This document shows positions 9,325 to 32,664 of a DNA stretch of 64,000 nt, in pieces. The DNA lies in the NCBI GenBank assembly GCA_004799435.1, contig SSMV01000169.1:980-64979 (forward strand), given 5' to 3'. The translations under genes and the position numbers were made by a program. The DNA comes from Bradyrhizobium sp. (lineage in GTDB: Bacteria; Pseudomonadota; Alphaproteobacteria; Rhizobiales; Beijerinckiaceae). Numbering within the stretch: the stretch's first letter is position 1; every line of letters begins with the position of its first letter. The notes under the pieces are model-generated. The model ran no database searches and was not told the origin of the DNA. It was given only the letters and a program-made list of their open reading frames with translations.

Positions 9325-10212
<888 letters not shown>

Positions 10213-15631: not shown

Positions 15632-16621
15632 ATGAGCACACCCGCCGCTGACGCCGTCGATGTCGCCCTGCGCACGATCGCCTTTGAACGACAAGGCCTT
15701 GAGGCCATGGCCGAGGCGCTGCGGGCGCAAGGCGACAATGGGCTCGGAGGGGCATTTCGCCGCGCCGTCGGCCTGATTTCCGCCGCCACAGGACGGGTTA
15801 TCGTCACGGGATTAGGCAAATCCGGCCATGTCGCGCGCAAGATCGCGGCGACGCTCGCCTCGACCGGCCAGCCGGCGATGTTCGTCCACGCCGCAGAGGC
15901 GAGCCATGGCGATCTCGGCATGGTGCAGAATGGCGACGTGGTGATCGCCATCTCCTGGTCGGGCGAGACGGTCGAACTCGCGGCCGTCATCACTTACGCC
16001 AAGCGCTTCGCCATTCCGCTGATCGCGGTGACCGCCAATCCCGACAGCGCGCTCGGCCGCGAGGCCGATGTGCTGCTGTGCCTGCCCAACGCGCCAGAAG
16101 CCTGCCCCAATGGGCTGGCGCCGACCACTTCGACGACCATGCAGCTCGTGATTGGCGACGCGCTGGCGATCGCGCTGCTGGAGAGCCGGCAGTTCTCGGC
16201 CCGCGATTTCCAGATCCTGCATCCCGGCGGCAAGCTCGGCGCCAAACTCGCCTATGTGCGCGACGTCATGCATCGCGGCGAGCGCGTGCCGCGCATCCGC
16301 ATGGGCGCCAAAATGGCCGACGCCATCGTCGAAATGACCAGCAAGGGCTTTGGCTGCGTCGGCGTTTTCGACGAGCGCGACGGGCTGCTCGGCATCATCA
16401 CCGACGGCGATTTGCGCCGGCACCTCAAATCGCGCCTGACCATCGACACGCCGGTCGAAGAGGTGATGACCCGCGCGCCGCGCACCATCGCCCCCGACGC
16501 CCTGGTCGCCGAGGCTTTGGAACTGATCAGCCACAAGATTTCGGCGCTGCTGGTGGTGGAGGCCGGAGCGGTCGTCGGGATCATCCATTTCCACGATCTT
16601 TTGCGGATCGGCGCCGCCTGA
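15632..16621 (+). CDS. kdsD: Arabinose-5-phosphate isomerase, KpsF/GutQ family (SIS plus two CBS domains)
   Basis: VIVTGLGKSGHVARKIAATLASTG, EASHGDLG, GLAPTTST, HPGGKLG and GIITDGDLRR. Start could be 15598 or 15632. Confidence 0.93.
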   Translation: MSTPAADAVDVALRTIAFERQGLEAMAEALRAQGDNGLGGAFRRAVGLISAATGRVIVTGLGKSGHVARKIAATLASTGQPAMFVHAAEASHGDLGMVQNGDVVIAISWSGETVELAAVITYAKRFAIPLIAVTANPDSALGREADVLLCLPNAPEACPNGLAPTTSTTMQLVIGDALAIALLESRQFSARDFQILHPGGKLGAKLAYVRDVMHRGERVPRIRMGAKMADAIVEMTSKGFGCVGVFDERDGLLGIITDGDLRRHLKSRLTIDTPVEEVMTRAPRTIAPDALVAEALELISHKISALLVVEAGAVVGIIHFHDLLRIGAA

Positions 16622-16718
16622 TCGGCGGACGCGGAGCGTTCCGCCGCTCCTTGCCTTGGCCGCCCCGCTATGGCAAAAGCCGCCGTCCGCCGCGGCCTCT
16701 TATCCCGCGTGCGCCAGC

Positions 16719-16793
<75 letters not shown>

Positions 16794-16861
16794 TTCAAGC
16801 CCTTGATGCGGCTTAGCCTCATTCAAACTGGATGCTGAATTTTGGCAGGCGGCCCCTCGTC

Positions 16862-18469
16862 CTAGAGGGCCGCGGGCGGCAAGGGCGGCTTGCCAAGGAT
16901 CATGTCGGCCGCCTTTTCAGCGACCATGATCGTCGGCGCATTGGTATTGCAGGACGGGACGAAGGGCATCACCGAGGCGTCGACGACGCGGATGCCCATG
17001 AGCCCACGCAGCTTGAGATCCGGCGTTACGACAGCCTCCGCGCCCGAGCCCATGGCGCAGGTTCCCGCCGGATGATGGTCGGTCTTGCAGGAGCGATAGG
17101 CGTATTGCGCCAGGTCCTCGTCGGTGTTGAGACCGTCGCCCGGCAGGCGCTCCGCCAGAACATAGGGCTTCAGCGCCGGCTGGCGCAGAATGTCGCGCGC
17201 CAGCCTAAGGCCCTTGATGGCGCATTGGCGATCGTAAGGGTCAGCCCAGTAATTGGGATCGATGAGCGGCGCCGCTTTCGGATCGTCGCTGGCGATCCGC
17301 ACCGTGCCACGCGAGCGGGGGCGCAAGAAGGCCGAGTTCAAAGTCACGCCGGGATTTTTCATCGCCGCGACCCCCGCCTCGATGCCGGAGCCGAGACCGA
17401 GGTGGAATTGAATGTCGGGCGAGCGCGCTTCTCTGTCGGCGTACCAGAAGCCGCCCGTCTCGAAGAGCGTCGAGGTCACCGGTCCGCTCTTGAACAAGAG
17501 ATATTCAAGACCTGCCCAGGCGGTGCGATGCGGGCGCGCGACGCGGTCATAGGTGTGATCGCCGGTGCATTCCGAGATCGCATAGAGATCGAGATGATCC
17601 TGCATATTCGAGCCGACGCCGGGCAGGTCGTGAACGACCGCGACTCCCGCGGCTTTCAGATCGTCGGCCGGACCGATGCCGGAAAGCTGCAGCAGGCGCG
17701 GCGAACCGATAGCGCCGCAACTGATGATGATTTCCCGGTCGGCGTTGAGGGTCGCCGTCCCCGTCCCGGAGGCGATCGTCACGCCCACCGCGCGGCCGTT
17801 GCTGACCTCGATCTTCATCGTTTGCGTATTGAGGCGAACGCTAAGATTTTTGCGACCGAGGATCGGCTTCAAAAAGGCGCTTGACGCTGATGAACGCTCG
17901 GCATTGCGCGTCGAGAGCTGATAATGGCCGATGCCGTCCTGCACGGCGCCGTTGAAATCGTCGTTGAAGGGAATTCCATATTCCTGCGCGGCGCGTAGGA
18001 AGGCGTAGCTGATTGGCGGCGGACTGACCGGATAGGAAACGCCGAGCGGACCGCCATAGCTATGGTAGGCGTTGTGCAGCTTCTGATTGTCCTCGCTGCG
18101 CTTGAAATAGGGGAGGACCTCGCGATAGCTCCAGCCCTGAGCGCCGGCGTCGCTCGCCCAGGAATCATAGTCCTTGGCGTTGCCGCGCGTATAGAGCTGC
18201 GCGTTGATCGTCGAGCCGCCGCCGATGATCTTGGCCTGCGTGTACCAGATGACGCGGCCGTCAAGATGCTTTTGCGGAACGGTGCTCCATCCCCAGCTCG
18301 CGACGCCCTTGGTCATTTTCGCGAAGCCGGCCGGCATACGAAAAAGCGGGTTCCAGTCGCCACCGCCCGCCTCGAGAAGCAGCACCTCGATCGAGGGATC
18401 GGCGCTCAGGCGGTTCGCCAGCACGCAGCCGGCGGGACCGCCGCCAACGACGATGTAATCGTAGCCCAT
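16862..18469 (-). CDS. GMC flavoprotein oxidoreductase, L-sorbose 1-dehydrogenase-like
   Basis: GGGPAG, MPAGFAKMT, GGGSTINA, PGVGSNMQDH, HPAGTCAMG and CNTNAPTIMVAEKAAD. Strongly resembles the Gluconobacter L-sorbose dehydrogenase as I remember it (MPVGFAKMT, GGAFWY, PDLQFH). Confidence 0.85.
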   Translation of the reverse strand: MGYDYIVVGGGPAGCVLANRLSADPSIEVLLLEAGGGDWNPLFRMPAGFAKMTKGVASWGWSTVPQKHLDGRVIWYTQAKIIGGGSTINAQLYTRGNAKDYDSWASDAGAQGWSYREVLPYFKRSEDNQKLHNAYHSYGGPLGVSYPVSPPPISYAFLRAAQEYGIPFNDDFNGAVQDGIGHYQLSTRNAERSSASSAFLKPILGRKNLSVRLNTQTMKIEVSNGRAVGVTIASGTGTATLNADREIIISCGAIGSPRLLQLSGIGPADDLKAAGVAVVHDLPGVGSNMQDHLDLYAISECTGDHTYDRVARPHRTAWAGLEYLLFKSGPVTSTLFETGGFWYADREARSPDIQFHLGLGSGIEAGVAAMKNPGVTLNSAFLRPRSRGTVRIASDDPKAAPLIDPNYWADPYDRQCAIKGLRLARDILRQPALKPYVLAERLPGDGLNTDEDLAQYAYRSCKTDHHPAGTCAMGSGAEAVVTPDLKLRGLMGIRVVDASVMPFVPSCNTNAPTIMVAEKAADMILGKPPLPPAAL

Positions 18470-18484
18470 CAGCCTACCTTCAGA

Positions 18485-19984
18485 TCAATGAAGCTCGGTC
18501 TTGACGATATGGTCCGCGACGCGCAGCGCCTGCGCCGCAATCGTCAGCGAGGGATTGACCGCCGCCGAGGTCGGCAGACACGAAGCGTCGACGACGAAGA
18601 GATTGGGGTGATCCCAGGCGCGGCAGTAAGGATCGAGCGGCGATGTCGCGGGATCCGCGCCGATACGAATGGTGCCGCATTGATGTGACGGCGTGCGGCG
18701 ATCGAAGGGCCGCGTCAGAACGATCGGATAGCCCGCCGCGCGCAGCCGCTCTTTGAAGGCGTCGACGAGTTTCAGATGCGTCCCCCAGTTGCTGCGCTTC
18801 CAGTCAAGATGGATTTGGCCGCCGTTCACGGTGACGCGGCTCTCCGGATTGGGAAGGTCCTCGCTCATCGCGTACCAGTCGACCGCGCGCCGCGACAGCG
18901 GCGAGAGAAGCCATTCCGGAAAACGCCGCAGGTTCGCTTTCAGGATCGGCGCGCTCACGCGGCCAAGCAACTGGATATTGCCGAGCGGCGCGCCGCCATG
19001 TCCATCATCGAAGTAGAAGTCGTTGACGCCGAGCGTCTTCTGATAGATCGAGTCATTGACGGCTCTGGGGTCGATCGCCAGCATCGCGGTCGTATTGTGA
19101 TTCATGAAATGCCGCCCGACCATGCCTGATCGATTGGCGATGCCGCCGTCGCGCGAGGAGAGCAGAAGGACGGCGGAATTGACCGCGCCGGCCGACAGGA
19201 TGACGGTCTTGGCCACTATGCGCTTGCGTTCGCCGTCGATCGTCGCTTCGACGCCGGATATTCGTTTTCCGTCGGCGTCCAGCAACAGGCGTTCGACCTT
19301 GGCGCGCTCGCGCAATTCGACATTGGGATAGCGAAACGCCTCGGCGAGCCCGCAGCTTTCGGCGTCCATCTTGCCGAAGCCGGTATCGGGAAATGCGTCC
19401 CAGGGCGTCTTCGCCCGCGCCAGCCAGCGATCGATGTCGACCCCTAGGGGCAGCGAGAATGGGTGCAGGCCGACGCGCGTCATGCGCTCGCGCACAAGCG
19501 CGATCGCCGGCTCGTCGGGAACGGGCGGAAAGGGATAGGGCGCGGAATGGTCCGGCTCAGTGGGATCGCCGCCGAGCGCGCCATGCGCGCGATAGAGTCT
19601 TTCCGCACGACCATACCAGGGTTCGAGCTCGCCATATTCGAAGGGCCAGCCCGGCGTCGCGCCGTCAGGATAGTCGACCGGCCGGAAGTCCCGCGCCCGG
19701 TAGCGCAGCAGGACCGCGCCATAGAGTTTGGTGTTTCCCCCGACGTAATAATAATTGCCGGGATTGAAAGTTACGCCGGCGCCGTCGATCCAGGATTCCT
19801 GCGGCCGGTACACGCCGCGCTGGAATATGGCGCGCGCGTCGCGCGCGTCGGGAGAATCCGGCAAGCGCGAGCCGCGCTCGAGGATGAGGATTTTCGCGCC
19901 GGAGGGCGCCAATCCGGCCGCGCAGGTCGCGCCGCCCATTCCCGATCCGACGATCAGAATGTCAACCGTCTCAGGATCTGTCAT
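18485..19984 (-). CDS. Second GMC-family flavoprotein oxidoreductase (different subfamily)
   Basis: GSGMGG, VGGNTKLYGA, GRHFMNH, SHQCGTIRIG and PTSAAVNPSLTIAAQALRVA. Confidence 0.88.
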   Translation of the reverse strand: MTDPETVDILIVGSGMGGATCAAGLAPSGAKILILERGSRLPDSPDARDARAIFQRGVYRPQESWIDGAGVTFNPGNYYYVGGNTKLYGAVLLRYRARDFRPVDYPDGATPGWPFEYGELEPWYGRAERLYRAHGALGGDPTEPDHSAPYPFPPVPDEPAIALVRERMTRVGLHPFSLPLGVDIDRWLARAKTPWDAFPDTGFGKMDAESCGLAEAFRYPNVELRERAKVERLLLDADGKRISGVEATIDGERKRIVAKTVILSAGAVNSAVLLLSSRDGGIANRSGMVGRHFMNHNTTAMLAIDPRAVNDSIYQKTLGVNDFYFDDGHGGAPLGNIQLLGRVSAPILKANLRRFPEWLLSPLSRRAVDWYAMSEDLPNPESRVTVNGGQIHLDWKRSNWGTHLKLVDAFKERLRAAGYPIVLTRPFDRRTPSHQCGTIRIGADPATSPLDPYCRAWDHPNLFVVDASCLPTSAAVNPSLTIAAQALRVADHIVKTELH

Positions 19985-20007
19985 CGCGTCACTCGCCCGG
20001 CCCGCAA

Positions 20008-21120
20008 CTAGACCCGGCGGCTGGTCTGCGGATCGAACAGAACCGCCTTGTCGAGATTGAATGCGAAGGAGACATTTTGTCCCGGCCGCACGTCGGCGTC
20101 GGCGCGCATCCGCGCGGTGACTTCCTTGCCGGCGATCTTCGTCACCACGAAAGTGTCCGAGCCGGCCGGCTCGACGAGATCGACATGCGAGGCGAAAGTC
20201 GCGATGTTTTTCGACTTGCGGTCGGCGCTTTCCGGGTCGCTCACCGCCTCCGGGCGAATGCCAAGAATGACGATACCGCCGTCGCGCAGCTTCGTCGCGT
20301 CGGCGCTGTTCGGCGCCGGCAGGACGATCGGTTCCGCGCCGGGGCGGTCGACCACGATCGAAGCGGCGCCGTTGGTCTTCGACACTTTCGCCTCGATGAG
20401 ATTCATCGAGGGCGAGCCCATGAAATCGGCGACGAAGAGATTGGCCGGCGTGTTGTAAATCTCGTAGGGGCTGCCGACCTGTTGCAATTCGCCGTCCTTC
20501 AGCACGGCGATGCGGGTCGCGAGGGTCATCGCCTCGATCTGGTCATGCGTGACATAGACGATCGTCGTTCCGGTCTGGTGATGAAGCCGTTTGATCTCGA
20601 TGCGCATGTCGACGCGCAATTTGGCGTCGAGGTTGGAGAGCGGTTCGTCGAACAGGAACACGCGCGGTTGGCGCACCAGAGCCCGGCCCATGGCGACGCG
20701 CTGGCGCTGGCCGCCTGACAGCTGGCTCGGCCGCCGATTGAGCAAATGCTCGATTTGCAGCGTCTTGGCGACATCGGCCACCGCCTTGTCGCGCTCCGGC
20801 TTCGGCACGCCGCGCATTTCCATGCCGAAGGCCATGTTCTGCGCGACCGACATGTTGGGATAGAGCGCGTAGGACTGGAACACCATCGCGATGTCGCGCT
20901 TCGAGGGATGGAGATCGTTGATTACGTCGCCGTCGATGCTGATCTCGCCGGAGGTGATCGATTCCAGTCCGGCGATCATGTTGAGCAGGGTCGATTTGCC
21001 ACAGCCCGACGGCCCGACGAGAACGAGGAAGCCGCCCTTCTCCAGGGTCAGATCGATGCCCTTGATAATCTCCAGCGCGCCGAAGCGCTTGCGCAGAGCG
21101 TTGATCTCAAGAAAGGCCAT
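20008..21120 (-). CDS. Sugar ABC transporter ATP-binding protein (MalK/MsmK family)
   Basis: GPSGCGKST, LSGGQRQRVAMGR, FDEPLSNLDAKLR and a C-terminal TOBE/OB region. Confidence 0.96.
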   Translation of the reverse strand: MAFLEINALRKRFGALEIIKGIDLTLEKGGFLVLVGPSGCGKSTLLNMIAGLESITSGEISIDGDVINDLHPSKRDIAMVFQSYALYPNMSVAQNMAFGMEMRGVPKPERDKAVADVAKTLQIEHLLNRRPSQLSGGQRQRVAMGRALVRQPRVFLFDEPLSNLDAKLRVDMRIEIKRLHHQTGTTIVYVTHDQIEAMTLATRIAVLKDGELQQVGSPYEIYNTPANLFVADFMGSPSMNLIEAKVSKTNGAASIVVDRPGAEPIVLPAPNSADATKLRDGGIVILGIRPEAVSDPESADRKSKNIATFASHVDLVEPAGSDTFVVTKIAGKEVTARMRADADVRPGQNVSFAFNLDKAVLFDPQTSRRV

Positions 21121-21123
21121 GAT

Positions 21124-22071
21124 CTATCCCTTCACCGCGCCGGCCATCAGACCGCGCACGAAATAACGGCCGCCGACGATATAGACGAACAGCGTCGGCC
21201 CCGCGGCGATGATCGCTGCGGCCATATTGACATTATATTCAACGATGCCCGTCGAGGTGTTGACGAGATTGTTCAAGGCGACCGTCATCGGCGAGGAGTC
21301 GCCCGCCGCAAAAGTCGAGCCGAACAGAAAGTCGTTCCAGATGTTGGTGAACTGATAGATCACCGTCACGATGATGATCGGCGTCGAATTCGGCAGAAGG
21401 ATGCGACGAAAGATCTGAAAAAAACTCGCGCCGTCGATCTGCGCCGCCTTCACCAATTCGGTCGGAAACGCCTCGTAATAGTTGCGGAAGAACAGGGTGG
21501 TGAAGCCGAGGCCATAAATGACGTGGACGATCACCAGATTGACGGTCGGATTGCCGAAGCCGAAAGCGTAGCCCGTCGCATCGATCAGCGAATTGCCGAT
21601 CTCGCCGAGATAGCCGAGGATCACCGCCATCGGAATGATGACCGACTGGAACGGGATGAAGCAAGCAAACAGCATCATGCCGAAGACCAGTTTATGGCCG
21701 GGGAAGCGCCATTTGGTCAGCACGTAGCCGTTCAACGCGCCGAGCATGGTCGAGATCGCCACCGCCGGCACGACCATTTTGATCGAATTCCAGAAATAGC
21801 CGGCGATGCCGGCCGTGTCCGAAACGCCGATGCGCGCCTCGCCCCAGGCCTGCACCCAGGGGTCGAAAGTCAGGTGATGCGGCAGGGCGAACATATTGCC
21901 GCCGGTCACTTCGTCGAGCGGCTTCAGCGATGTCATCACCATGACGACAAGCGGAATGAGATAGACGAAAGCAAAGAGGAGCAGCAGGCCGTAAATCACC
22001 ACGCGGGTGAGATTGGAGTGGCGCGCCGGCTCGCGGGCAGGCGGCGACGTGATGAGATCGGCGGCGCTCAT
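21124..22071 (-). CDS. Carbohydrate ABC transporter permease (MalG-type)
   Basis: EAA loop ELVKAAQIDGAS and IWNDFLFG. Its ATG overlaps the upstream stop (ATGA); the ORF track over-extends it. Confidence 0.93.
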   Translation of the reverse strand: MSAADLITSPPAREPARHSNLTRVVIYGLLLLFAFVYLIPLVVMVMTSLKPLDEVTGGNMFALPHHLTFDPWVQAWGEARIGVSDTAGIAGYFWNSIKMVVPAVAISTMLGALNGYVLTKWRFPGHKLVFGMMLFACFIPFQSVIIPMAVILGYLGEIGNSLIDATGYAFGFGNPTVNLVIVHVIYGLGFTTLFFRNYYEAFPTELVKAAQIDGASFFQIFRRILLPNSTPIIIVTVIYQFTNIWNDFLFGSTFAAGDSSPMTVALNNLVNTSTGIVEYNVNMAAAIIAAGPTLFVYIVGGRYFVRGLMAGAVKG

Positions 22072-23018
22072 CGACCCTTCTCCCGAAGCTCGGAATAGAG
22101 ATAGGGCACCATGATCGCGGCGATGGTCATCAACATGATGACCGCGGCGGTCGAGCCGACCGCCATCTGATTGCGGGTGAAGGTGAAGGAATACATGAAG
22201 GTCGACGGCAACTCCGCCGCGCCGCCGGGATTCTTGCCGGTGACCGAGAGCACCAGATCGTAGGATTTGATCGCCATATGGGTGAGAATGATGATGGCGG
22301 ACAGAAAGACCGGCCGCATGATTGGGATAATGATGCGCCGGTAGGTCTGAAAGGCCGACGCGCCGTCGATCTGCGCGGCTTTGATGATTTCGCCGTCGAC
22401 GCCGCGAAGCCCGGCGAGGAACATCGCCATGACGAAACCGGACGTCTGCCAGATTCCGGCGATGGCGACGCAATAGATCATCATGCGCGGATTGACGACC
22501 CAATCGAAATGAAAACTCGTCCAGCCCCAGTCGTGCATGGCTTTCTCGAGCCCGATGCCCGGATCGAGAAACAGTTTCCAGGCCGTGCCGGTCACGATGA
22601 AGGACAGCGCGAGCGGATAGAGATAGATCGGCCTCAAGATGCCTTCGCCGCGGATCTTCTGATCGAGCAGGATCGCCAGCGTCAGGCCCAGCACCAGACA
22701 GAAAAAGACATAGAGGCCGCCGAACAGGCCCATGTTGACGATCGCCGTGTACCAGTTCGACGGCGGGTCGGATTGAAAGGTCCAGTCCCACAGGCGCCGG
22801 TAGTTCAGCAAGCCGACGAGATGCGTGCTCGCGAAGGCCTTGGAATTGGTGAAAGAGAGAAAGAACGTCCACAGGTTGAAGCCGTAGACGAAGACGAGCA
22901 CCAGAATGAAAGACGGCGCCAGGACGAGCTTCGGCAAAAGATTTTGCAGGCGCTGTCGCGCCAGTCCGCGACGAGCGCGAGTCGTTTTGACCACGGTCGG
23001 CGCCACACTTACGGTCAT
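22068..23018 (-). CDS. Carbohydrate ABC transporter permease (MalF-type)
   Basis: EAA loop EIIKAAQIDGAS and IWQTSGFVMAMFLAGL. Confidence 0.93.
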   Translation of the reverse strand: MTVSVAPTVVKTTRARRGLARQRLQNLLPKLVLAPSFILVLVFVYGFNLWTFFLSFTNSKAFASTHLVGLLNYRRLWDWTFQSDPPSNWYTAIVNMGLFGGLYVFFCLVLGLTLAILLDQKIRGEGILRPIYLYPLALSFIVTGTAWKLFLDPGIGLEKAMHDWGWTSFHFDWVVNPRMMIYCVAIAGIWQTSGFVMAMFLAGLRGVDGEIIKAAQIDGASAFQTYRRIIIPIMRPVFLSAIIILTHMAIKSYDLVLSVTGKNPGGAAELPSTFMYSFTFTRNQMAVGSTAAVIMLMTIAAIMVPYLYSELREKGR

Positions 23019-23053
23019 CGAACGGACCCGGCCTTATCTGAAACGGGGACGAA

Positions 23054-23080
23054 CCCTCCCTCGCGCAAGGCGAGGGAGGG
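23054..23080 (-). other. 11-bp GC stem-loop immediately downstream of the substrate-binding protein gene (mRNA stabiliser or partial terminator)
   Basis: ccctccctcgc-gcaag-gcgagggaggg is a perfect stem; the U-tract on the minus strand is weak. Confidence 0.65.
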
Positions 23081-23091
23081 CTTTTATCAGA

Positions 23092-24357
23092 TTATTTGGC
23101 GTTATTGAGCGCCTTGTCCAGCTCCGCAACGGCGGCGTCGGACGTCTTGATCTCGCCGTGGAAGAACTTCGTCACCACGTCGTGATAGGCGCCAGCGACC
23201 GCCGGCGGCTGCGCGTAGTTCTGCGCCATGGAGCCGACGAAGGTTCCGGCCGCGTTGGCGGCCTTGACGTCGGCGATGCCCTTCTTGCCGCACATGTCGA
23301 AGGCGGTGTCGGGAACATCCATACGCGCCGGCACCGAACCCTTGACGACGTTGAACGCCGACTGGAAGCTCGGGCTCATCGTCGCGTCGGCGAGCGCGAG
23401 CTGCGCGCCCTGGCGGTCGGCCGAGACCTTGAACATCGCGAACATGTCGGTGTTGTAGATCACGGAGCCGTCGGTGCCGGGGAAGCGATAGCAAAGGAAG
23501 TCTTTGCCCGCTTCCTTGTTGGCGGCGCGGAACTCGCCCTTCGCCCAGTCGCCCATCACCTGAACGAGCGCGTCGCCCTTGATCACCATGGCGGTCGCGA
23601 GGTTCCAATCGCGGCCGGCGTAGTTCGGGTCGACGTAATCGCGCAGCTTGGCGAGATTGTCGAAGGACTTCTTCATCGTGTCGGACTTCAGAGCGCCTTC
23701 GTCCAGGTCGACGAACGCCTTCTTGTAGAATTCGATGCCGCCGGTGGAGGCCACGACCGAATCGAAGAGGGTCGCTTCCTGCCACGGCTGGCCGCCGAGC
23801 GCGAGCGGGATGACCCCCGCCGCCTTCGCCTTGCCAAGCAGCGCAACGAAATCGTCGAAGTTCTTCGGCTCGGTTCCGCCGATCTTGTCCATCACGGACT
23901 TATTGATCCACACCCAGTTGACCGAATGGATGTTGACCGGAACCGCGTCCCACTTGCCGTCCGTTGTGGTGAACTTCTGCAGGGCCTGCGGAACGACCTT
24001 CGCCCAATCCTCCTTCTTGGCTAGCGACGAGATGTCGCCGAGCTTGCCGGCTTCCGCGTAGTCGACCGCGAAATAACCGAGGATCTGCGAGGCGGTGGGC
24101 GGATTGCCCGCCGCGACCATCGCCTTCAGGGCGGTCATCGCGCCTTCGCCGCCACCGCCGGCGATCGGCACGTCCTTCCAGGCGTAGCCTTCTTTGGCGA
24201 GATCCTGCTTGAGGACGTTCAGCGCGGCTGCTTCGCCGCCCGAAGTCCACCAATGCAGCATCTGGATTTCTTTGTCCTCAGCGGCAATGGCGCCTGAGGT
24301 CAGGCCGAGCGCTCCCGCGGTCATCACGCTCGCCATCAAAATCGAACGAAGTTTCAT
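23092..24357 (-). CDS. Sugar ABC transporter substrate-binding protein (glucose/mannose GtsA-like family)
   Basis: Signal peptide, QMLHWWTSGGEAAAL, VPVNIHSVNW, LALGGQPWQ, DWNLATAM and MGDWAKGEF. Confidence 0.92.
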   Translation of the reverse strand: MKLRSILMASVMTAGALGLTSGAIAAEDKEIQMLHWWTSGGEAAALNVLKQDLAKEGYAWKDVPIAGGGGEGAMTALKAMVAAGNPPTASQILGYFAVDYAEAGKLGDISSLAKKEDWAKVVPQALQKFTTTDGKWDAVPVNIHSVNWVWINKSVMDKIGGTEPKNFDDFVALLGKAKAAGVIPLALGGQPWQEATLFDSVVASTGGIEFYKKAFVDLDEGALKSDTMKKSFDNLAKLRDYVDPNYAGRDWNLATAMVIKGDALVQVMGDWAKGEFRAANKEAGKDFLCYRFPGTDGSVIYNTDMFAMFKVSADRQGAQLALADATMSPSFQSAFNVVKGSVPARMDVPDTAFDMCGKKGIADVKAANAAGTFVGSMAQNYAQPPAVAGAYHDVVTKFFHGEIKTSDAAVAELDKALNNAK

Positions 24358-24445
24358 GGGCTAACCTTCCTATTACGCTCCCTCCGCCGGATACGGCCCG
24401 GCTGCCGGATACAGGAGTCTTTGCCGACTCCCGATTGCTGCGATT

Positions 24446-25975: not shown

Positions 25976-25986
25976 GGTCCTCGGTC

Positions 25987-26760
25987 CTATCGGCCGCTGA
26001 AAACTGGCGCGCGCTTGGCGCGGAAAGCCGCTCGGCCTTCAGCCAGATCTTCGGTGTAAGCCGTAAGCGCGCCTGCGAGCCCCTCGATCGGAGCATCCCG
26101 ATCCTCCCCTTCGGCCGCATTGATCATCGACTTGATCATTTGAACTGCGAGCGGCCCACGCTTGGCTATATCTGCAGCAAGAACGTGCGCGCGAGAAGCC
26201 CCTTTGCCTTTTGCCACGACTTCATCGACGAGTCCGAGCGTTAGAGCTTCCTCCGCCGTGAAGACTGCGCCGGCCAGCGCCATTCGTCTTACAATAGAGG
26301 CGCCGAAGCGACGCACGAGTCTCTGCGTGCCCGACCAGCCCGGCGCCATGCCCAATCCCGATTCAGGAAGACCGAGTTTGACGCCGCTCTCGGCGATGCG
26401 AATGTCGCCAACAGCGGCAAGTTCCAGGCCTCCGCCCAAGGCGTGACCTGCCAGCACGACGATCAACGGCACGCGAAGACGCGCCAGGGCTTCCAGAGCG
26501 CGGTGTCCGGCGCGCGTCCAGTCGCGCCACATTTCCAAAGGCGGCAGATCGCCCCAAGCCGCGATGTCGCCGCCCGCGCAAAAGGCCTTGCCCTCGCCCG
26601 ACAGGATCGCCACTCGCATGTCAGTGGACGCGTCGATCGCCCGCGCGCTTTCCAAAAGAGCGTCGATCATCGATCGGTCGAGCGCGTTCAGCTTGTCCGG
26701 TCGCTTCAGCGTCAGGAACGCGCAAGGGCCTTCGAAACGCAATTCGACAAAGGCATTCAT
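25987..26760 (-). CDS. Enoyl-CoA hydratase/isomerase (crotonase) family protein
   Basis: RPDKLNAL, AFCAGGDI, GHALGGGLEL, LGLPESGLG and WSGTQRLVR; both catalytic-type Glu positions are present. Confidence 0.92.
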   Translation of the reverse strand: MNAFVELRFEGPCAFLTLKRPDKLNALDRSMIDALLESARAIDASTDMRVAILSGEGKAFCAGGDIAAWGDLPPLEMWRDWTRAGHRALEALARLRVPLIVVLAGHALGGGLELAAVGDIRIAESGVKLGLPESGLGMAPGWSGTQRLVRRFGASIVRRMALAGAVFTAEEALTLGLVDEVVAKGKGASRAHVLAADIAKRGPLAVQMIKSMINAAEGEDRDAPIEGLAGALTAYTEDLAEGRAAFRAKRAPVFSGR

Positions 26761-28358
26761 TGCAGCGTCTCCCGCGCCGGCCGTAGCTGCAGATTGAACG
26801 GCTCAGGGTTGAACAGCGCCGCGTCCATCGTCCGGACGTGCTGGGCCACGCGAAGCGGAAATTCCGCCTGCGCGAGAATGTCGCGCTCGAGATCGACGCC
26901 AAGCGCGATCTCTATGACCGTCACGCCGTCGCGCTCCAGGCGCATAACGCAACGTTCGGTGACATAGACAATGTCCTGTCCCTGCGCGACGGCGCGCGGA
27001 CCGGAGAAGGAAATCTGCTCGACCGCTTCGACGAGCTTTTTGACTTTACCTTCCTTGACGATCGAAACCGCGCCATCGCGCACGTCGAGCTTCGCCCCGG
27101 CCGTGAAATAGCCGGAGAAGACGATCTTTTTTGCCCGCGCGGTGATGTCGACAAAACCGCCGGCGCCGGCGGTCACATGCGGACGCACGCCGAGCTTGGA
27201 CACATTGACGGAGCCGCCCTTGTCGATCTGCAGGAAGGAGAGCAACGACATATCGAAGCCGGCGCCCTGGAAGTAAGTAAATTGGTGGGGCGACTGGACA
27301 ATCGCCTCGGCGTTGGAAGCGCAACCGAACTGGAAATCGAGCAGCGGCACGCCGCCGACGGCGCCCTGTTCGATGACCCAGGTCACCGCGCCGTGGCGGC
27401 CTTCCTCAATCAGGATGCGCGGCACATTTGCAGATATGCCGAAGCCGATATTGACGGCGTCGCCGTCGCGCAGCTCCTGGGCGACGCGTCTGGCGATCAC
27501 TTTGGCAATGTCGAACTTCGGGATTTCGAACGACGACAGCGGCCGAAAGATCTCGCCGGAGATCGCCGGCTCATAGACGGTGTTGGTCGTCTGCAACTGA
27601 TCGGGCGCGACGACGATATAGTCGACCAGAACGCCCGGCACGACGACGTCATGGGGACGGATCGTGTCGGCGGCGGCGAGACGCTTAACCTGCGCAATGA
27701 CGATCCCGCCATTGTTGCGAACCGAGAGCGCCTGATCGAGCGGCCCCAGCACGCCGCCTTCATGTTCGTAGGAGAGATTGCCGCGTTCGTCGGCCGTCGT
27801 GGCGCGAATGATCGCGATATGCGGAGTGATCGTCGGAAAGAAGAGCCATTCATCGTCAGCGAAATTGACGCGCTTGACGATCGGATCGACGGCGGCCTTA
27901 GCGTTCATCGCGCAGCCCTCATGGAGCGGATCGACAAAGGTCTCCATGCCGACTTTCGTCAACACGCCCGGCCGCTTGGCGGCGGCTTCGCGATGAATGT
28001 CGAAGAGAATGCCAGAGGGGACGTTGTAGGCCGGGATCGCGTCGTCGCAGATCATCTTCCAGATCGCCGGCGGCTCGGCCGAGGACGGCCCGGACGGATA
28101 AGAGCCCGCCAGCACTCGCGCCAGGCATCCGGATTTCGCGATATGATCGACGCCCTTGACGCCCCACATGTCGCCCGCCGCGATCGGGTGCAATGTCGTG
28201 AGATCGCGCGGGTGACCGTCGGCGTCGAATCTTTCTCCGATCGCTTTAAGAACCGCGTCCGGGCAGCCAAGCGCCGAAGAGGACGAGACCGTTACGATCG
28301 CGCCATCAGGAATGAGACAAGCAGCGGCGGCGGCGGAAATGACTTTTTTCTTCGCCAT
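26757..28358 (-). CDS. Acyl-CoA:acetate/3-ketoacid CoA transferase (family I, fused alpha/beta, YdiF/Pct-like)
   Basis: AIIRATTADERGN, NGGIVIAQV, NIGFGIS, catalytic IEQGAVGG and GAGGFVDIT. Confidence 0.92.
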   Translation of the reverse strand: MAKKKVISAAAAACLIPDGAIVTVSSSSALGCPDAVLKAIGERFDADGHPRDLTTLHPIAAGDMWGVKGVDHIAKSGCLARVLAGSYPSGPSSAEPPAIWKMICDDAIPAYNVPSGILFDIHREAAAKRPGVLTKVGMETFVDPLHEGCAMNAKAAVDPIVKRVNFADDEWLFFPTITPHIAIIRATTADERGNLSYEHEGGVLGPLDQALSVRNNGGIVIAQVKRLAAADTIRPHDVVVPGVLVDYIVVAPDQLQTTNTVYEPAISGEIFRPLSSFEIPKFDIAKVIARRVAQELRDGDAVNIGFGISANVPRILIEEGRHGAVTWVIEQGAVGGVPLLDFQFGCASNAEAIVQSPHQFTYFQGAGFDMSLLSFLQIDKGGSVNVSKLGVRPHVTAGAGGFVDITARAKKIVFSGYFTAGAKLDVRDGAVSIVKEGKVKKLVEAVEQISFSGPRAVAQGQDIVYVTERCVMRLERDGVTVIEIALGVDLERDILAQAEFPLRVAQHVRTMDAALFNPEPFNLQLRPARETLQ

Positions 28359-30403
<2,045 letters not shown>

Positions 30404-30443
30404 GCTTCACTCCCCCAGAATTCTTATGATTCTGGCGCTAACA

Positions 30444-30459
30444 TTTGGATCGCTCCAAA
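30444..30459. promoter_or_regulatory. Candidate LacI operator 1, TTTGGATCGCTCCAAA
   Basis: Near-perfect palindrome with a central CG, typical of LacI family operators, about 40 bp upstream of the LacI start. Confidence 0.65.
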
Positions 30460-30520
30460 AACAAACCCAGCAGCACCATAGACACGCTGGAACTATTGGA
30501 TTGATCATTTGCCTTGATTA

Positions 30521-30534
30521 TTGGAACGTGCTAA
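30521..30534. promoter_or_regulatory. Candidate LacI operator 2, TTGGAACGTGCTAA
   Basis: Degenerate copy of the same TTGGA-CG-CCAA-type palindrome upstream of the divergent flavoprotein gene. Confidence 0.45.
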
Positions 30535-30588
30535 AAATGTTAACGAGTTTCTAATTCCTCGTCAACTCCGAATTTCGCGGAAACGTCC

Positions 30589-32664
30589 TTGGCCCCGCCC
30601 GTCCCGCAATCCATCCTCGACGGATTGACCGACGTGACCATGCCTCGGCTGGCCAATGAAAGGCCGCCGGGGGATCTCGCGAGGGTCGGGCCCTATATCT
30701 TGCCCATCCAGCGCAGCGAAGCGCTTGTGCTTGGCAGCGGCGCGGCTGGCTTACGCGCCGCCGTCGAGTTGAAACGTCGCGATGTCGACGTTGTGGTCGC
30801 AAGCCAGAGCGCCTTCGGCGGAACTTCAGCCTGTTCAGGCTCCGATAAACAAACGCTGCACACCGCCAACAGCGCCGGACGCGGCGACGATTTCCAGGCG
30901 CTCGCCGATGCGCTGGGCGCCGGCGGCGCGATGGACGAGGACACCGCCTATGTCGAAGCGGTAGGTTCGGCGCGGGCGCTCGCCTCGCTTCAATTCATGG
31001 GCCTGCCGATTCCTCAGGATCGGCTGGGCGGCGTGTTGCGTTATCAAACCGACCATGACGAGATCGGCCGCGCGACAAGCTGCGGGCCTCGCACCTCGCG
31101 TCTCATGGTGCAGGCGCTGGCGCGCGAGGCGATCCGTCTTGAGATTCCGATCTTCAATCACACGACGGGCGTTCGCATTCTTGTTGCGGACGACGCGAGC
31201 CCGCGCGCAGTCGGCGTGATTGCCGCCGCGCCGGAAAAGAGAACGGCGGAAAATCCCTACGGTCTCACGGTCTTCCTTTCCGACGCCATTGTCCTTGCCG
31301 CCGGCGGCCCCGGCGAGCTCTATCGCGACAGCGTCTATCCGAAACATTGTTTCGGATCGCTCGGCCTCGCATTGGAGGCCGGCGTCGAGGCGGTCAATCT
31401 GACCGAAAGCCAATTCGGCATCGGCACGCCGCGCTATAATTTTCCGTGGAATCTGTCGGGCACTTACGTGCAATGCATGCCTTATATTTTTTCGCGCGAC
31501 GCGCGGGGCGTCGAACATAATTTTCTAACTGAGTACTACCGCACGACGCAGGAGCTCGCGTCCAACATCTTCCGCAAGGGCTATCAATGGCCGTTCCATG
31601 CCACGCGCATGCTCGACTTCCGATCGAGCCTGCTCGACCTCGCCGTCTATCGCGAGACCCGACTGCAGCGAAAAGTGTTCATGGATTTCAACCGCAACCC
31701 GCTGCCCGCGCCCGGCGACAGGCCGTTCAGCCTCGATCGTCTGGAGGACGACGTGCGCGCCTATCTAGAGAAGAGCGGTGCCCTGCTTGAGGCGCCGATC
31801 GATCGTCTGCGGAAAATGAACCCGCTCGCGATCGAGCTCTACAAGCGCTACAAATATGACATCACGCGCGATCCGCTCGAATTTGCGATCAACAATCAGC
31901 ATATGAATGGCGGCCTCGCCGTCGACGCCTGGGGCCGAACGACTCTCGCCGGCTGCTACGCCATCGGGGAGGCGGCGGGAACTCATGGCGTGACGCGGCC
32001 CGGCGGCGCCGCGCTGACCGCCGGTCAGGTCTTCGGTACGCGATGCGCCGAGCATATCGCCTCGATGCGCAAGCCTCACAAGACAGTCAATTCTGAGTCG
32101 CGCGCGATCGAAGCGGCCGTCGCGAGAATCATCGACGCCCTCAAAAGCGAGAACGGGTTGAGCGCGAAGTCGATCCGCGACGAAATCCAGGCGCGCATGA
32201 GCGATCACGCCGGAATTCTTTGCAAGCGCGATGACGTCAATCGCGCCAAGACGGCGGCGGCCGCCTTGAACCAATCGATTCGACAGCAAGGCGTCGCCTT
32301 CGCCGGCGCCAATGAGGCGCTGCGGGCGCTGCAGTGGCGGCAATCCGCTCTGGCGTCGGAAGCCATTCTCACGGCGCTGGCGTTCTATCTCGATCGCGGC
32401 GGCGGCAGCCGCGGCGCGCGCGCCGTTTGCTCGTCGAGCGGCGATCAGGTTCCCCAGGGCAGAAGCGGCCCCATCGAACAGGCCCGCTTCGTTTCGGAAC
32501 GGCCGCAGGATCGCGCCGAACAGATTCACATCCGATTGCGCGACGAAGCGTTCGTCTGCGAGCCACGGCCCATTCGCAAACGAAACCGCAACGACTCGCC
32601 GTTTTTCGAACGCGACTGGCCGGACTATCTGACGGGCGCGATCCATGATCCGCCTCCCGGATGA
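30589..32664 (+). CDS. Stand-alone FAD-binding protein of the SdhA/FrdA/NadB fold, function unknown
   Basis: LGSGAAGLRAA, VLAAGGPG, QHMNGG, GEAAGTHGVTRPGGAAL and the C-terminal GGSRGA. No Fe-S or membrane subunits are nearby. Start codon is uncertain. Confidence 0.82.
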   Translation: MAPPVPQSILDGLTDVTMPRLANERPPGDLARVGPYILPIQRSEALVLGSGAAGLRAAVELKRRDVDVVVASQSAFGGTSACSGSDKQTLHTANSAGRGDDFQALADALGAGGAMDEDTAYVEAVGSARALASLQFMGLPIPQDRLGGVLRYQTDHDEIGRATSCGPRTSRLMVQALAREAIRLEIPIFNHTTGVRILVADDASPRAVGVIAAAPEKRTAENPYGLTVFLSDAIVLAAGGPGELYRDSVYPKHCFGSLGLALEAGVEAVNLTESQFGIGTPRYNFPWNLSGTYVQCMPYIFSRDARGVEHNFLTEYYRTTQELASNIFRKGYQWPFHATRMLDFRSSLLDLAVYRETRLQRKVFMDFNRNPLPAPGDRPFSLDRLEDDVRAYLEKSGALLEAPIDRLRKMNPLAIELYKRYKYDITRDPLEFAINNQHMNGGLAVDAWGRTTLAGCYAIGEAAGTHGVTRPGGAALTAGQVFGTRCAEHIASMRKPHKTVNSESRAIEAAVARIIDALKSENGLSAKSIRDEIQARMSDHAGILCKRDDVNRAKTAAAALNQSIRQQGVAFAGANEALRALQWRQSALASEAILTALAFYLDRGGGSRGARAVCSSSGDQVPQGRSGPIEQARFVSERPQDRAEQIHIRLRDEAFVCEPRPIRKRNRNDSPFFERDWPDYLTGAIHDPPPG

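Follow-up and report, generated by a model that had tools for sequence, protein, structure and literature searches.

A conserved operon around an anhydrofructose reductase gene suggests a CoA-dependent breakdown of anhydro-sugars

The window analyzed here is a stretch of 64,000 nucleotides from a contig of Bradyrhizobium sp., in which the genes for a LacI-family repressor, a 1,5-anhydro-D-fructose reductase (Afr), a CoA-transferase, a crotonase, an aldehyde dehydrogenase (ALDH), an ABC importer of the glucose type, and two GMC flavoenzymes form a compact operon on the minus strand (16862-30403; Table 1). The stop codon of lacI overlaps the start of afr as ATGA, the TAG stop of afr is followed by the ATG of the CoA-transferase gene with zero gap, and the latter overlaps the crotonase gene in a second ATGA, all of which can be read directly in the sequence. 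The same overlap is found at the junction of the two permease genes, the start of permease 2 having been reset to the ATG at 22071, with GGGAGAAGG upstream and an overlap with the stop of permease 1. The other intergenic gaps in the operon measure 3-88 nt. The original prediction had listed all these genes on the minus strand, together with the two overlaps and the zero-gap junction around afr, and each is present as described; it had also reported the operon to be free of P450 or monooxygenase genes, and the domain search found neither domain in the operon. There is one importer per operon.

Table 1. Features of the afr locus, with positions in the window.
Feature	Position	Strand	Domains and remarks
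LacI-family repressor	29366-30403	-	Pfam LacI HTH and Peripla_BP_1/3 domains
afr, 1,5-anhydro-D-fructose reductase orthologue (Gfo/Idh/MocA)	28359-29369	-	
Fused family I CoA-transferase (YdiF/Pct/FadX type)	26757-28358	-	Pfam CoA_trans domain
Crotonase-family enoyl-CoA hydratase/dehydratase	25987-26760	-	Pfam ECH_1
Non-acylating aldehyde dehydrogenase (ALDH), optional member	24446-25975	-	Pfam Aldedh, 547 bits
CUT1 periplasmic sugar-binding protein, glucose-binding family	23092-24357	-	SBP_bac_1 domain
ABC permease 1	22068-23018	-	BPD_transp_1 domain
ABC permease 2	21124-22071	-	BPD_transp_1 domain
ABC ATPase (UgpC/MalK type)	20008-21120	-	ABC_tran, OB_MalK, TOBE domains
GMC-2, FAD sugar dehydrogenase (secondary-alcohol type)	18485-19984	-	GMC_oxred_N and GMC_oxred_C
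GMC-1, choline-dehydrogenase/alcohol-oxidase-like flavoenzyme (primary-alcohol type)	16862-18469	-	GMC_oxred_N and GMC_oxred_C
691-aa FrdA/SdhA/NadB-like flavoprotein, divergent from lacI	30589-32664	+	FAD_binding_2 domain
LacI-type operator 1 (TTGGATCGCTCCAA)	30445-30458		Predicted; upstream of lacI
LacI-type operator 2 (TTGGAACGTGCTAA)	30521-30534		Predicted; in the gap separating lacI from the divergent flavoprotein gene

Afr matches the crystallized reductases of Sinorhizobium morelense (2GLX, E = 1.6e-137) and S. meliloti (4KOA, E = 8.9e-134) over its full length, shares 64% identity with the copy of S. meliloti Ak57, and retains the GASTIA motif, the lysine of the EKP motif, and the D..H catalytic pair. 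Judged by these sequence comparisons, it is a true orthologue of the crystallized 1,5-anhydro-D-fructose reductases, which bears out its earlier assignment. The CoA-transferase gene lies directly downstream of afr in 74 of the 77 informative loci, from many genera of the Alpha- and Betaproteobacteria, a conservation of gene order far greater than chance would produce. The core genes (afr, those of the CoA-transferase and crotonase, the ABC importer genes, and both GMC genes) occur in 48-49 of 49 genomes of the Hyphomicrobiales and Burkholderiales. When 400 Alphaproteobacteria were sampled evenly, 3 genomes carried afr, and in 2 of these it adjoined the CoA-transferase gene. In S. meliloti, a source species of the crystallized enzyme, the gene annotated as afr sits in an equivalent operon. 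The original prediction depended on afr being accompanied by the CoA-transferase and hydratase genes in other genomes, and this linkage is kept across classes, S. meliloti included.

The CoA-transferase aligns with E. coli YdiF (2AHU) over residues 5-518 (E = 3e-94), scores 333 bits with the NCBIfam model FadX, and conserves the catalytic glutamate (E333 in YdiF). The crotonase retains both catalytic glutamates (E113 and E133), and its closest solved relative is the 3-hydroxypropionyl-CoA dehydratase 5ZAI (E = 2.7e-49), the best match by a margin of 11 orders of magnitude in E-value.

The binding protein of the importer, the N-terminus of which resembles a signal peptide, matches 4R2B (E = 4e-158) and is related to the glucose-binding proteins of Pseudomonas (5DVF/5DVI), Thermus (2B3B), and SAR11 (8HQQ), the last of which was crystallized with D-glucose. 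Membership of this family would be as expected for a 1-deoxy-pyranose ligand. The nearest solved relatives of GMC-2 are the catalytic subunits of the Burkholderia FAD-glucose dehydrogenase (6A2U, E = 1e-34) and the Gluconobacter fructose dehydrogenase, and its C-terminus is pyranose-oxidase-like. Those of GMC-1, which scores 556 bits with the NCBIfam choline dehydrogenase subfamily, under the cut-off of 605, are choline dehydrogenase, a chloramphenicol-oxidizing GMC enzyme, and alcohol oxidases. Each of the two genes is present in 48 of the 49 operons.

The divergent 691-aa flavoprotein, which the SdhA, FrdA, and NadB models match weakly, is a newly recognized part of the afr system. Its gene adjoins the operon in all 14 of the Roseiarcus/Bradyrhizobium loci of the flavoprotein type. 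In Rhizobacter, R. grahamii, and Rhizobium sp. CCGE531, a copy with 62-64% identity follows GMC-1 in the same orientation. In the window, the gene ends at 32664, which is also the end of the interval described in the original prediction, where it was not named. Two mutually exclusive accessory sets can be recognized, that is, the flavoprotein, with or without a KdgK-like kinase, and DUF993 with SDR, Dabb, and glycerate kinase; the flavoprotein occurs in 15 of the 49 genomes and DUF993 in 30, never together, and 4 operons have neither within the surveyed span. The ALDH, which reached the cut-off of no NCBIfam equivalog, is an optional member of the operon, being present in 34 of the 49 surveyed operons and missing from 15 (28/30 of the DUF993 type versus 6/15 of the flavoprotein type).

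In Rhizobium sp. CCGE531, Rhizobacter, and one Roseiarcus, the last gene of the operon encodes the KdgK-like kinase. Among the NCBIfam models, 2-dehydro-3-deoxygluconokinase fits it best (250 bits, versus 125 for the next family, with an equivalog cut-off of 400), and the enzyme could alternatively phosphorylate 2-ketogluconate or a different ketoacid. In the Rhizobiaceae, the operon is accompanied by glycerate kinase and ALDH genes, while the genome of the window has Eda and KDG-kinase-like genes side by side, unlinked to the operon. The accessory kinases of the relatives fit a 2-keto-3-deoxy-acid product.

Only two matches of the TTGGAACGTTCCAA type are present in the whole 64-kb window, versus 0.1 expected by chance, and both fall inside a single intergenic region of 185 bp; operator 1 differs from this palindrome by 2 mismatches. 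At least one such site occurs at the equivalent position upstream of lacI in 60 of the 64 full-length afr loci, mostly paired, and 117 of the 119 matches in these loci lie upstream of lacI. The conserved operator pair upstream of lacI is, like the place of the flavoprotein in the system, a new finding. The position of operator 2 could allow the control of both lacI and the flavoprotein gene, which is probably co-regulated with the operon. Tentatively, at rather less than even odds, the operon can be read as a LacI-controlled catabolic unit for neutral 1,5-anhydro-hexoses or -hexitols (1,5-anhydrofructose, 1,5-anhydroglucitol, and 1,5-anhydromannitol).

The Afr of Sinorhizobium reduces 1,5-anhydro-D-fructose to 1,5-anhydro-D-mannitol. 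The conserved association of afr with the CoA-transferase and crotonase genes suggests that anhydro-sugars may be broken down by an undescribed CoA-dependent pathway, and no CoA route for these sugars was found in the published literature. The most economical scheme, because the accessory kinases fit its product, leads to 2-keto-3-deoxygluconate (KDG); we give it a probability of about 0.4, and infer all of its steps besides the Afr reaction. The sugar would be taken up by the glucose-type ABC system, and GMC-2 would convert 1,5-anhydroglucitol to 1,5-anhydrofructose, which Afr would then reduce to 1,5-anhydromannitol, the two enzymes jointly funneling substrates toward the manno form. The exocyclic CH2OH would be oxidized to the carboxylate (2,6-anhydro-D-mannonate) by GMC-1, alone or with an aldehyde dehydrogenase, and the YdiF-type CoA-transferase would make the thioester. 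The crotonase would take the acidic proton beside the ring oxygen and eliminate the neighboring hydroxyl, giving a cyclic enol ether, the hydration of which would open the ring to yield KDG or its CoA ester, with the CoA being handed on to the next substrate molecule. In the organism of the window, the product would enter central metabolism through the unlinked KDG-kinase/Eda pair, and in the Rhizobiaceae, through aldol cleavage followed by ALDH and glycerate kinase.

GMC-1 resembles enzymes acting on primary alcohols, some of which carry the oxidation on to the acid, and this would support oxidation at C6. In E. coli, homologous CoA-transferase, crotonase, and flavoprotein genes accompany an acid importer (a TRAP system), whereas GMC-1 and ALDH are absent, and the absence of GMC-1 where the acid is imported fits a role in making it. 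By our own derivation, the stereochemical argument of the original prediction is chemically correct, given that the manno form leads to 3-deoxy-D-erythro-hexulosonate (KDG) and the gluco form to the L-threo isomer. The pathway that it proposed is partly supported, by the identity of Afr, the gene linkage, the catalytic residues, and the kinase context, but its use of the ALDH alongside GMC-1 at C6 is doubtful: many otherwise complete operons have no ALDH, which may therefore act not at C6 but on glyceraldehyde. Other points also count against the KDG scheme. Mannose is the published product of 1,5-anhydromannitol (see below), and the KdgK-like kinase scores under its equivalog cut-off. The usual substrates of YdiF/Pct-type transferases and 3-hydroxypropionyl-CoA dehydratase are C2-C4 acids. 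The carbon to which crotonases add water is C3 and not C2, and enol ethers with an alpha-acyl group hydrolyze poorly, which leaves the ring-opening step without an enzyme. The scheme also provides no role for the flavoprotein, or for the DUF993/SDR/Dabb set of other lineages.

It is possible, if unlikely, that ring opening proceeds by a different mechanism, with the CoA-transferase and crotonase coming into play only later, on a small fragment. A 3-keto sugar formed by GMC-2 might, for example, undergo beta-elimination and dicarbonyl cleavage to a C3 acid, such as 3-hydroxypropionate, lactate, or glycerate, with the crotonase acting as a 3-hydroxypropionyl-CoA dehydratase, as its best solved relative does, and glycerate kinase taking the other half. 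The YdiF/Pct-type transferases are short-chain enzymes, and glycerate kinase recurs near CoA-transferase/crotonase pairs, including the afr-less clusters of pSymA and Roseateles, which additionally carry acyl-CoA dehydrogenase and ETF; the CCGE531 operon also holds a levoglucosan-dehydrogenase-like (C3-oxidizing) Gfo/Idh/MocA gene. However, the conserved core contains no lyase, hydrolase, or acryloyl-CoA reductase, and Afr and GMC-1 would have no clear role, while the translational coupling of afr, CoA-transferase, and crotonase suggests consecutive or closely linked steps.

Oxidative cleavage of the ether bond by the accessory module, rather than the crotonase, seems more doubtful. The NadB-like flavoprotein would oxidize the C-H beside the ring oxygen of a 2-alkoxy acid, by analogy with the action of aspartate oxidase on an amine, and water would open the ring to a 2-keto acid; DUF993/SDR/Dabb would be the equivalent in other lineages, and the CoA-transferase would pair with the crotonase as a CoA-dependent sugar-acid dehydratase, acting at an earlier or later step. 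The mutual exclusion of flavoprotein and DUF993, each of which shares the LacI-operator promoter region or lies inside the operon, is consistent with this, as is the E. coli flavoprotein (55% identity), the gene of which overlaps the CoA-transferase/crotonase pair next to the TRAP acid importer, and the kinase that follows the flavoprotein may equally be of the 2-ketogluconate type. Against this, the 4 operons with neither gene imply that the module is perhaps non-essential or encoded elsewhere, and a 2-keto acid would offer no alpha proton to a later crotonase step, which constrains the order of the steps. The substrate site of the flavoprotein is also unlike that of every characterized family member, and a profile test detected no similarity between DUF993 and DapA.

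The published route, in which 1,5-anhydrofructose is converted to 1,5-anhydromannitol and then D-mannose by C-1 oxygenation (Kuhn et al. 2006, as summarized in PMC12441222), is retained in the account given by a 2025 review (PMC12441222). If it is real, which would leave the CoA enzymes to a second, unrelated substrate of the regulon and is improbable here, the oxidation of C1 would fall to an unlinked oxygenase or, by way of dehydrogenation plus hydration, to GMC-2. This reading has an experimental report of mannose behind it (Kuhn et al. 2006, via PMC12441222), the nearest solved relative of GMC-2 oxidizes C1 of glucose, and the genome has two P450 genes elsewhere, unlinked to the operon; in the account in PMC12441222, however, the oxygenase has not been found in ~20 years. 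None of CoA-transferase, crotonase, and GMC-1 is required for a mannose route, although their genes are coupled to afr in 48-49 of 49 genomes of two classes, mostly through overlaps of stop and start codons, and the single importer of each operon also argues against a second substrate.

Least probable of all, and very unlikely, is a natural substrate other than an anhydro-sugar (glucose-derived osones, sorbose-type ketoses, a C- or O-glycoside, or a plant cyclitol or polyol), with 1,5-anhydrofructose reduction as a side activity: Kuhn and colleagues reportedly found in 2006 that Afr also reduces 2-keto-aldoses (osones), and the solved relatives of the binding protein take glucose or galactose, but CoA chemistry would be superfluous for ordinary hexoses. 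In S. meliloti, the orthologous binding-protein gene is reportedly induced by dextrin rather than by a defined anhydro-sugar (Mauchline 2006, as cited elsewhere), although anhydro-sugar ends in commercial dextrins are conceivable, as a conjecture. It also counts against this reading that, according to the summary in PMC12441222, 1,5-anhydrofructose was the substrate on which S. morelense was isolated, Afr being purified as the enzyme responsible.

The system to which afr belongs is real, conserved, well delimited, and catabolic. In the window, the eleven listed genes (lacI, afr, CoA-transferase, crotonase, aldehyde dehydrogenase (ALDH), the sugar-binding protein (SBP), two permeases and ATPase of an ABC importer, GMC-2, and GMC-1) all lie on the minus strand, and their domain content matches the original prediction. 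The tight junctions described there can be read directly from the sequence: lacI and afr overlap in ATGA, as do the CoA-transferase and crotonase genes, and the TAG stop codon of afr directly abuts the ATG of the transferase gene, with zero gap. The two permease genes also overlap in ATGA, once the start of permease 2 is set at 22071, and the other intergenic gaps in the operon are of 3–88 nt. A domain search recovered no oxygenase domain in the operon, as had been claimed for P450s and monooxygenases, and there is none among the annotated genes of the operons of S. meliloti, Microvirga, Rhizobium, and Peteryoungia.

The 73-nt spacer between the SBP and permease genes contains a GC-rich hairpin with an 11-bp stem (CCCTCCCTCGC...GCGAGGGAGGG), which may be an mRNA-stabilizing or attenuating element that raises the output of the SBP. 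The flavoprotein gene, divergent from lacI, is adjoined by an open reading frame (ORF) of 568 aa, for which a weak match to Methyltransf_24 is the only one found. None of the RNA sequencing runs contain the window, which is present only in soil-metagenome DNA runs.

Coordinates of the operon, its surroundings, and related features at other loci
Feature	Sequence	Coordinates	Strand
Operon, lacI to GMC-1	Window	16862-30403	minus
GC-rich hairpin	Window	23054-23080	
SBP gene	Window	23092-24357	minus
ALDH gene	Window	24446-25975	minus
Predicted LacI operator	Window	30445-30458	
Predicted LacI operator	Window	30521-30534	
Flavoprotein gene (691 aa)	Window	30589-32664	plus
ORF of 568 aa	Window	32726-34432	minus
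Eda and KDG/KDGal-kinase-like genes	C183 (another contig of the window's genome)	15888-17691	
Lone afr and DHDPS-family gene	L023 (Beijerinckiaceae MAG)	4991-6933	
ORF of ~428 aa	L050	15182-16468	
KdgK-like kinase and aldolase genes	L086 (Rhizobium sp. CCGE531)	7340-9408	
Flavoprotein gene of the ytfB-rplI island	L142 (E. coli)	8001-10052	

The product of afr aligns over its full length with the 1,5-anhydrofructose reductases (AFRs) 2GLX of S. morelense (E = 1.6e-137) and 4KOA of S. meliloti (E = 8.9e-134), the next Gfo/Idh/MocA structure being reached at 9e-31. In the alignment, the GASTIA dinucleotide-binding motif, the catalytic lysine (EKP), and the Asp...His pair are identical to those of the AFRs, and the roles of these residues were reportedly assigned by Dambe et al. 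in 2006. This full-length similarity and the retained motifs point to an AFR orthologue (EC 1.1.1.292), as had been proposed.

The CoA-transferase is a fused family I enzyme, with the alpha and beta domains in a single chain of ~530 aa, which aligns with YdiF over residues 5-518, and in which both pcaI- and pcaJ-type halves are detected. In family I, a glutamate of the YdiF E333 type forms the enzyme-CoA thioester, and this residue is retained here (viEqGavGG, vs. tvEtGpiGG in YdiF). The distant paralogues of the transferase (37–41% identity) are found beside acetate/alcohol genes, PHA genes, or an SDR-MaoC pair adjoining hut genes, which are unrelated settings, and were rejected as a clue to the substrate. 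The crotonase (ECH_1, 150 bits) has residues E113 and E133 aligned with both catalytic glutamates of its nearest solved relative, the 3-hydroxypropionyl-CoA dehydratase 5ZAI. GMC-1 contains the N-terminal FAD domain (172 bits) and the C-terminal substrate domain (126 bits) of its family, and its structural relatives place it near choline dehydrogenase and the alcohol oxidases that act on primary alcohols. The GMC domains of GMC-2 are weaker (43 and 63 bits, with each model matched only in part), and this protein groups with the catalytic subunits of the FAD-glucose and fructose dehydrogenases, which oxidize ring or secondary positions of sugars. The SBP is a near relative of 4R2B, within the glucose/galactose-binding group, and the ALDH is of the ordinary non-acylating type, with no specific equivalog matched.

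A scan for Afr, with one genome per species, recovered 80 loci, 77 of which had enough flanking sequence. The CoA-transferase gene lies directly downstream of afr in 74 of these 77 loci, counting a frameshift-broken copy in a poor assembly (L054), and is followed by the crotonase gene wherever the contig continues, so that the co-occurrence of afr with both CoA genes in other genomes, on which the original prediction had staked itself, is clearly present. The genera that carry the operon include Roseiarcus, to which the window probably belongs, Bradyrhizobium, Labrys, Shinella, Pararhizobium, Rhizobium, Devosia, Aminobacter, Mycoplana, and Pelagibacterium, together with the betaproteobacterial Rhizobacter and Hydrogenophaga. 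The operon is nevertheless rare: afr was found in only three of 400 evenly sampled alphaproteobacterial genomes, with an adjacent transferase gene in two of the three. On the chromosome of S. meliloti, the annotated order is LacI-AFR-CoA transferase-crotonase-ALDH-ABC-GMC-SDR-GMC-glycerate kinase, with DUF993 divergent.

Two copies of the palindrome TTGGAACGTTCCAA are found in the window, where 0.1 would be expected by chance, and both lie in the 185-bp spacer between lacI and the flavoprotein gene. In 60 of the 64 full-length afr loci, at least one site of this type, usually paired, lies at the corresponding position, which makes autoregulation of the operon by its own LacI very probable. The divergent gene, which encodes the flavoprotein here and DUF993 elsewhere, is probably under the same control. 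When the promoter region was searched for inverted repeats in general, nothing was returned, and the operator surfaced only through a motif search with TTGGAACGTTCCAA.

The components of the system were tabulated in 49 loci extended by 16 kb. The core consists of afr, transferase, crotonase, ABC system, and both GMC genes, with each component present in 48–49 of the 49, and it may be accompanied by one of two accessory sets, which are never found in the same genome. DUF993 is encoded in 30 of the genomes, among them those of Rhizobiaceae, Labrys, and Aminobacter; an SDR almost always goes with it, and a Dabb protein and glycerate kinase are frequent companions. The other set, in 15 genomes (all Roseiarcus, one Bradyrhizobium, and Rhizobacter), has the 691-aa flavoprotein instead, which resembles FrdA, SdhA, and NadB. 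The flavoprotein gene is co-directional with the operon and follows GMC-1 in Rhizobium sp. CCGE531, R. grahamii, and Rhizobacter (62–69% identity). Because it travels with the operon in differing arrangements, the flavoprotein belongs to the system, and is not a mere neighbor. We know of no characterized member of its family. In three relatives (CCGE531, Rhizobacter, and one Roseiarcus), although not in the window itself, the flavoprotein gene is followed by that of a KdgK-like kinase, which scores 250 bits against an equivalog cut-off of 400 bits. The ALDH gene, in turn, is present in 28 of the 30 DUF993-type operons vs. 6 of the 15 of the flavoprotein type.

A number of observations concern the variable genes themselves. 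The ALDH gene is variably present within the genus: in a comparison with L001, L005, L008, and other loci, it is found in the window and in five of 13 Roseiarcus-like loci surveyed, as a clean insertion between the crotonase and SBP genes. In about 25 loci of Pararhizobium, Shinella, and Rhizobium, such as L050, an ORF of ~428 aa, with 53–78% identity across genera, lies between the ALDH and SBP genes; neither Pfam nor NCBIfam provides a match for it, and it is absent from the window. In CCGE531, the gene of a class I fructose-bisphosphate aldolase lies 180 nt after that of the KdgK-like kinase, and a levoglucosan-dehydrogenase-like Gfo/Idh/MocA gene precedes that of the flavoprotein, a hint that this lineage may have additional or different steps. 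The assignment of DUF993 as a DHDPS-type aldolase, on the PGAP label of "dihydrodipicolinate synthase family", was rejected, given that Pfam recovers DUF993 only, and that the sole structure (4DNH) is uncharacterized. The comparison by hhalign of a 49-sequence DUF993 alignment with the DapA of the window's genome gave no match (probability 0.1), a weak negative, given the shallowness of the alignment (Neff 2).

It is quite probable that Afr and the CoA enzymes share a single pathway, acting on an acid derived from an anhydro-sugar. The best available reading of this pathway is the originally predicted route to 2-keto-3-deoxy-D-gluconate (KDG), to which we assign a probability of about 0.4. In this scheme, GMC-2 and Afr would convert both anhydroglucitol and anhydrofructose into the manno form, which GMC-1 would oxidize at C6 to 2,6-anhydro-D-mannonate. 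The thioester formed by the CoA-transferase would render a ring-carbon proton acidic, and the crotonase would remove the adjacent hydroxyl, leaving an enol ether, the hydration of which would open the ring to KDG. The scheme is chemically coherent, and uses each core enzyme once. The predicted stereochemistry is borne out by renumbering from the new carboxylate, with the manno form leading to 3-deoxy-D-erythro-hexulosonate, that is, KDG, and the gluco form to the L-threo isomer, which offers a reason for the unusual manno specificity of Afr. The Afr reaction is the sole established step, and we infer all of the others.

This reading survives in amended form, given that the ALDH, which had been assigned to the oxidation of C6, is optional and may have a downstream role, and that the flavoprotein should not have been left out. 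As it stands, the scheme gives no part to the flavoprotein, DUF993, SDR, or Dabb protein. The addition of water by crotonases takes place at C3 rather than C2, and acyl-bearing enol ethers are not labile, which leaves the scheme without a ring-opening enzyme. The accessory genes fit a 2-keto-3-deoxy-acid product, either through the KdgK-like kinase or through the ALDH and glycerate kinase, the latter as in the lower branch of the non-phosphorylative Entner-Doudoroff pathway. The entry of KDG into metabolism is available in the window's genome, where Eda (PF01081, 120 bits) is encoded beside a KDG/KDGal-kinase-like PfkB gene, unlinked to the operon. Only 1 nt separates these two genes, which lie downstream of a further CUT1 sugar ABC system, and this Eda is the only PF01081 aldolase of the genome.

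The individual steps of the route to KDG have counterparts in known systems. In the furfural/HMF (Trudgill) pathway of Cupriavidus basilensis, which includes the GMC oxidase HmfH, the formation of furoyl-CoA, and the crotonase-family HmfE, a GMC enzyme likewise oxidizes a CH2OH group beside the ring oxygen to an acid, which is then activated with CoA, and a cyclic alpha-alkoxy-enoyl-CoA is converted to a 2-oxoacyl-CoA, with the crotonase-family enzyme acting late. That pathway differs in its aromatic furan, its molybdenum hydroxylase, its activation by a ligase rather than a transferase, and its product, which is 2-oxoglutarate and not a sugar acid. In the carnitine metabolism of E. coli, the CoA-transferase CaiB and the crotonase CaiD remove water from a beta-hydroxy acid in CoA-ester form, with the CoA recycled from product to substrate. 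The likeness to the operon is one of logic only: CaiB belongs to family III, whereas the transferase of the operon is of family I, and the carnitine system involves neither a sugar substrate nor the opening of a ring. The 3,6-anhydro-L-galactose (AHG) pathway, with AHG dehydrogenase and 3,6-anhydrogalactonate cycloisomerase, and the unsaturated-uronate route, with GH88 hydration, KduI/KduD, KdgK, and Eda, resemble the proposal in the conversion of an anhydro-sugar to an acid and in the carbanion chemistry beside the carboxylate, by which the ether is opened to a 2-keto-3-deoxy-hexonate. In the latter route, the enol-ether hydration by GH88 opens pyranose rings. The enzymes of both, which belong to the enolase superfamily and the glycoside hydrolases, nevertheless act on free carboxylates, with no CoA ester. 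The summary in PMC12441222 also describes an anaerobic route of gut bacteria for 1,5-anhydroglucitol and 1,5-anhydromannitol (Ma et al. 2024), in which phosphorylation by the PTS is followed by an oxygen-sensitive, glycyl-radical cleavage of the C-O bond, to yield 1-deoxyfructose-6-phosphate. The substrates, and the problem of opening a 1-deoxy pyranose ring, are the same, but no enzyme family is shared with the operon.

Other explanations, taken together, have slightly better than even odds. The role of the transferase and crotonase might be confined to a C3 fragment that results from some other cleavage of the ring; the two families usually handle C2–C4 acids, and the afr-linked transferases, a clade with at least 62% internal identity and only ~40% identity to YdiF, may have a specificity different from the short-chain (C2–C4) pattern of YdiF and Pct. 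The flavoprotein could itself cleave the ether, by a NadB-like oxidation beside the ring oxygen. The published alternative, as summarized in PMC12441222, is that of Kuhn, Yu, and Giffhorn (2006), who reported that Sinorhizobium reduces 1,5-anhydrofructose to 1,5-anhydromannitol with AFR, and then forms mannose from it by oxygenation at C-1. The first step is unchanged here, with an orthologous afr, and the afr of S. meliloti lies in the same operon, but the published scheme makes no use of the CoA-transferase, crotonase, two GMC enzymes, or flavoprotein. An oxygenase acting on C1 of 1,5-anhydromannitol is absent from the operon, although two P450 genes, unlinked to the operon, are present in the window's genome, so that the lack of a P450, which would have excluded this route, had to be rejected as an argument.

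Related clusters without afr extend the range of the CoA genes. A paralogous cluster of ~25 kb is found on pSymA of S. meliloti (L082) and on a plasmid of Roseateles sp. XES5 (L083), where a CUT2 ABC sugar importer, Zn-ADH, ALDH, and GMC-1-like enzyme are followed by an AKR, CoA-transferase (68%), crotonase, glycerate kinase, second AKR, acyl-CoA dehydrogenase, and SDR, and then by DUF993, a TIM-barrel sugar-phosphate isomerase, ETF, and ETF-QO. In E. coli, the ytfB-rplI island encodes an SDR, TIM isomerase, crotonase, CoA-transferase, flavoprotein, and TRAP importer, and the flavoprotein gene overlaps that of the YdiF-type CoA-transferase. The uncharacterized E. coli islands (ytfB-rplI and dnaB-qor) share with the operon the flavoprotein (55% identity), transferase (38%), crotonase (39%), and an SDR of the same subfamily; they differ in the import of acids, by TRAP or other carboxylate carriers, and in having no afr, GMC genes, or sugar ABC system. 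The LacI operator is absent from the ytfB-rplI copy, where the regulator is of the TetR type. The GMC-1/ALDH pair is missing beside an importer of the acid type, and present beside one for neutral sugars, a pattern that fits GMC-1 as the source of the carboxylate needed by the transferase. Extended to all these loci, the proposal is that aerobic Proteobacteria open the ring through a CoA thioester (C6 carboxylate, CoA-transferase, crotonase elimination, and enol-ether hydration to KDG), and that the same toolkit, with the flavoprotein or DUF993, would form a widespread, unrecognized CoA-dependent sugar-acid branch, including the E. coli islands and pSymA; in this broad form it is tentative, with the odds against it.

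A search of mainly open-access literature returned no account of a pathway for anhydro-sugars that depends on CoA, nor of the proposed intermediates or DUF993, and a very recent report in a subscription journal is possible. A 2025 review still ascribes the step after Afr to an unidentified P450-like enzyme, and records no oxidative pathway for 1,5-anhydroglucitol (PMC12441222). For the aerobic fate of 1,5-anhydromannitol, a question that dates from 2006, the operon provides a concrete gene set that is open to genetic tests in S. meliloti; the interest of the operon is high because a model rhizobium thus allows a 20-year-old gap to be addressed directly by experiment. If true, the CoA route would represent a new mechanism for opening the ether ring of a sugar, would count among the very few steps of sugar catabolism that depend on CoA, and would provide a function for DUF993 and the uncharacterized flavoprotein family, as well as suggesting a substrate class for the related E. 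coli islands. It would also supply oxygen-tolerant enzymes for the degradation of 1,5-anhydroglucitol, which the same review identifies as the missing requirement if the neutropenia of GSD Ib and G6PC3 deficiency is to be approached with a probiotic (PMC12441222).

Homologues of afr also occur singly, outside the operon, with 72–78% identity (L023, L029, L030, and G171). In L029 and L030, the lone homologue lies among housekeeping genes, and in L023, it is directly followed by a true DHDPS-family (PF00701) gene.
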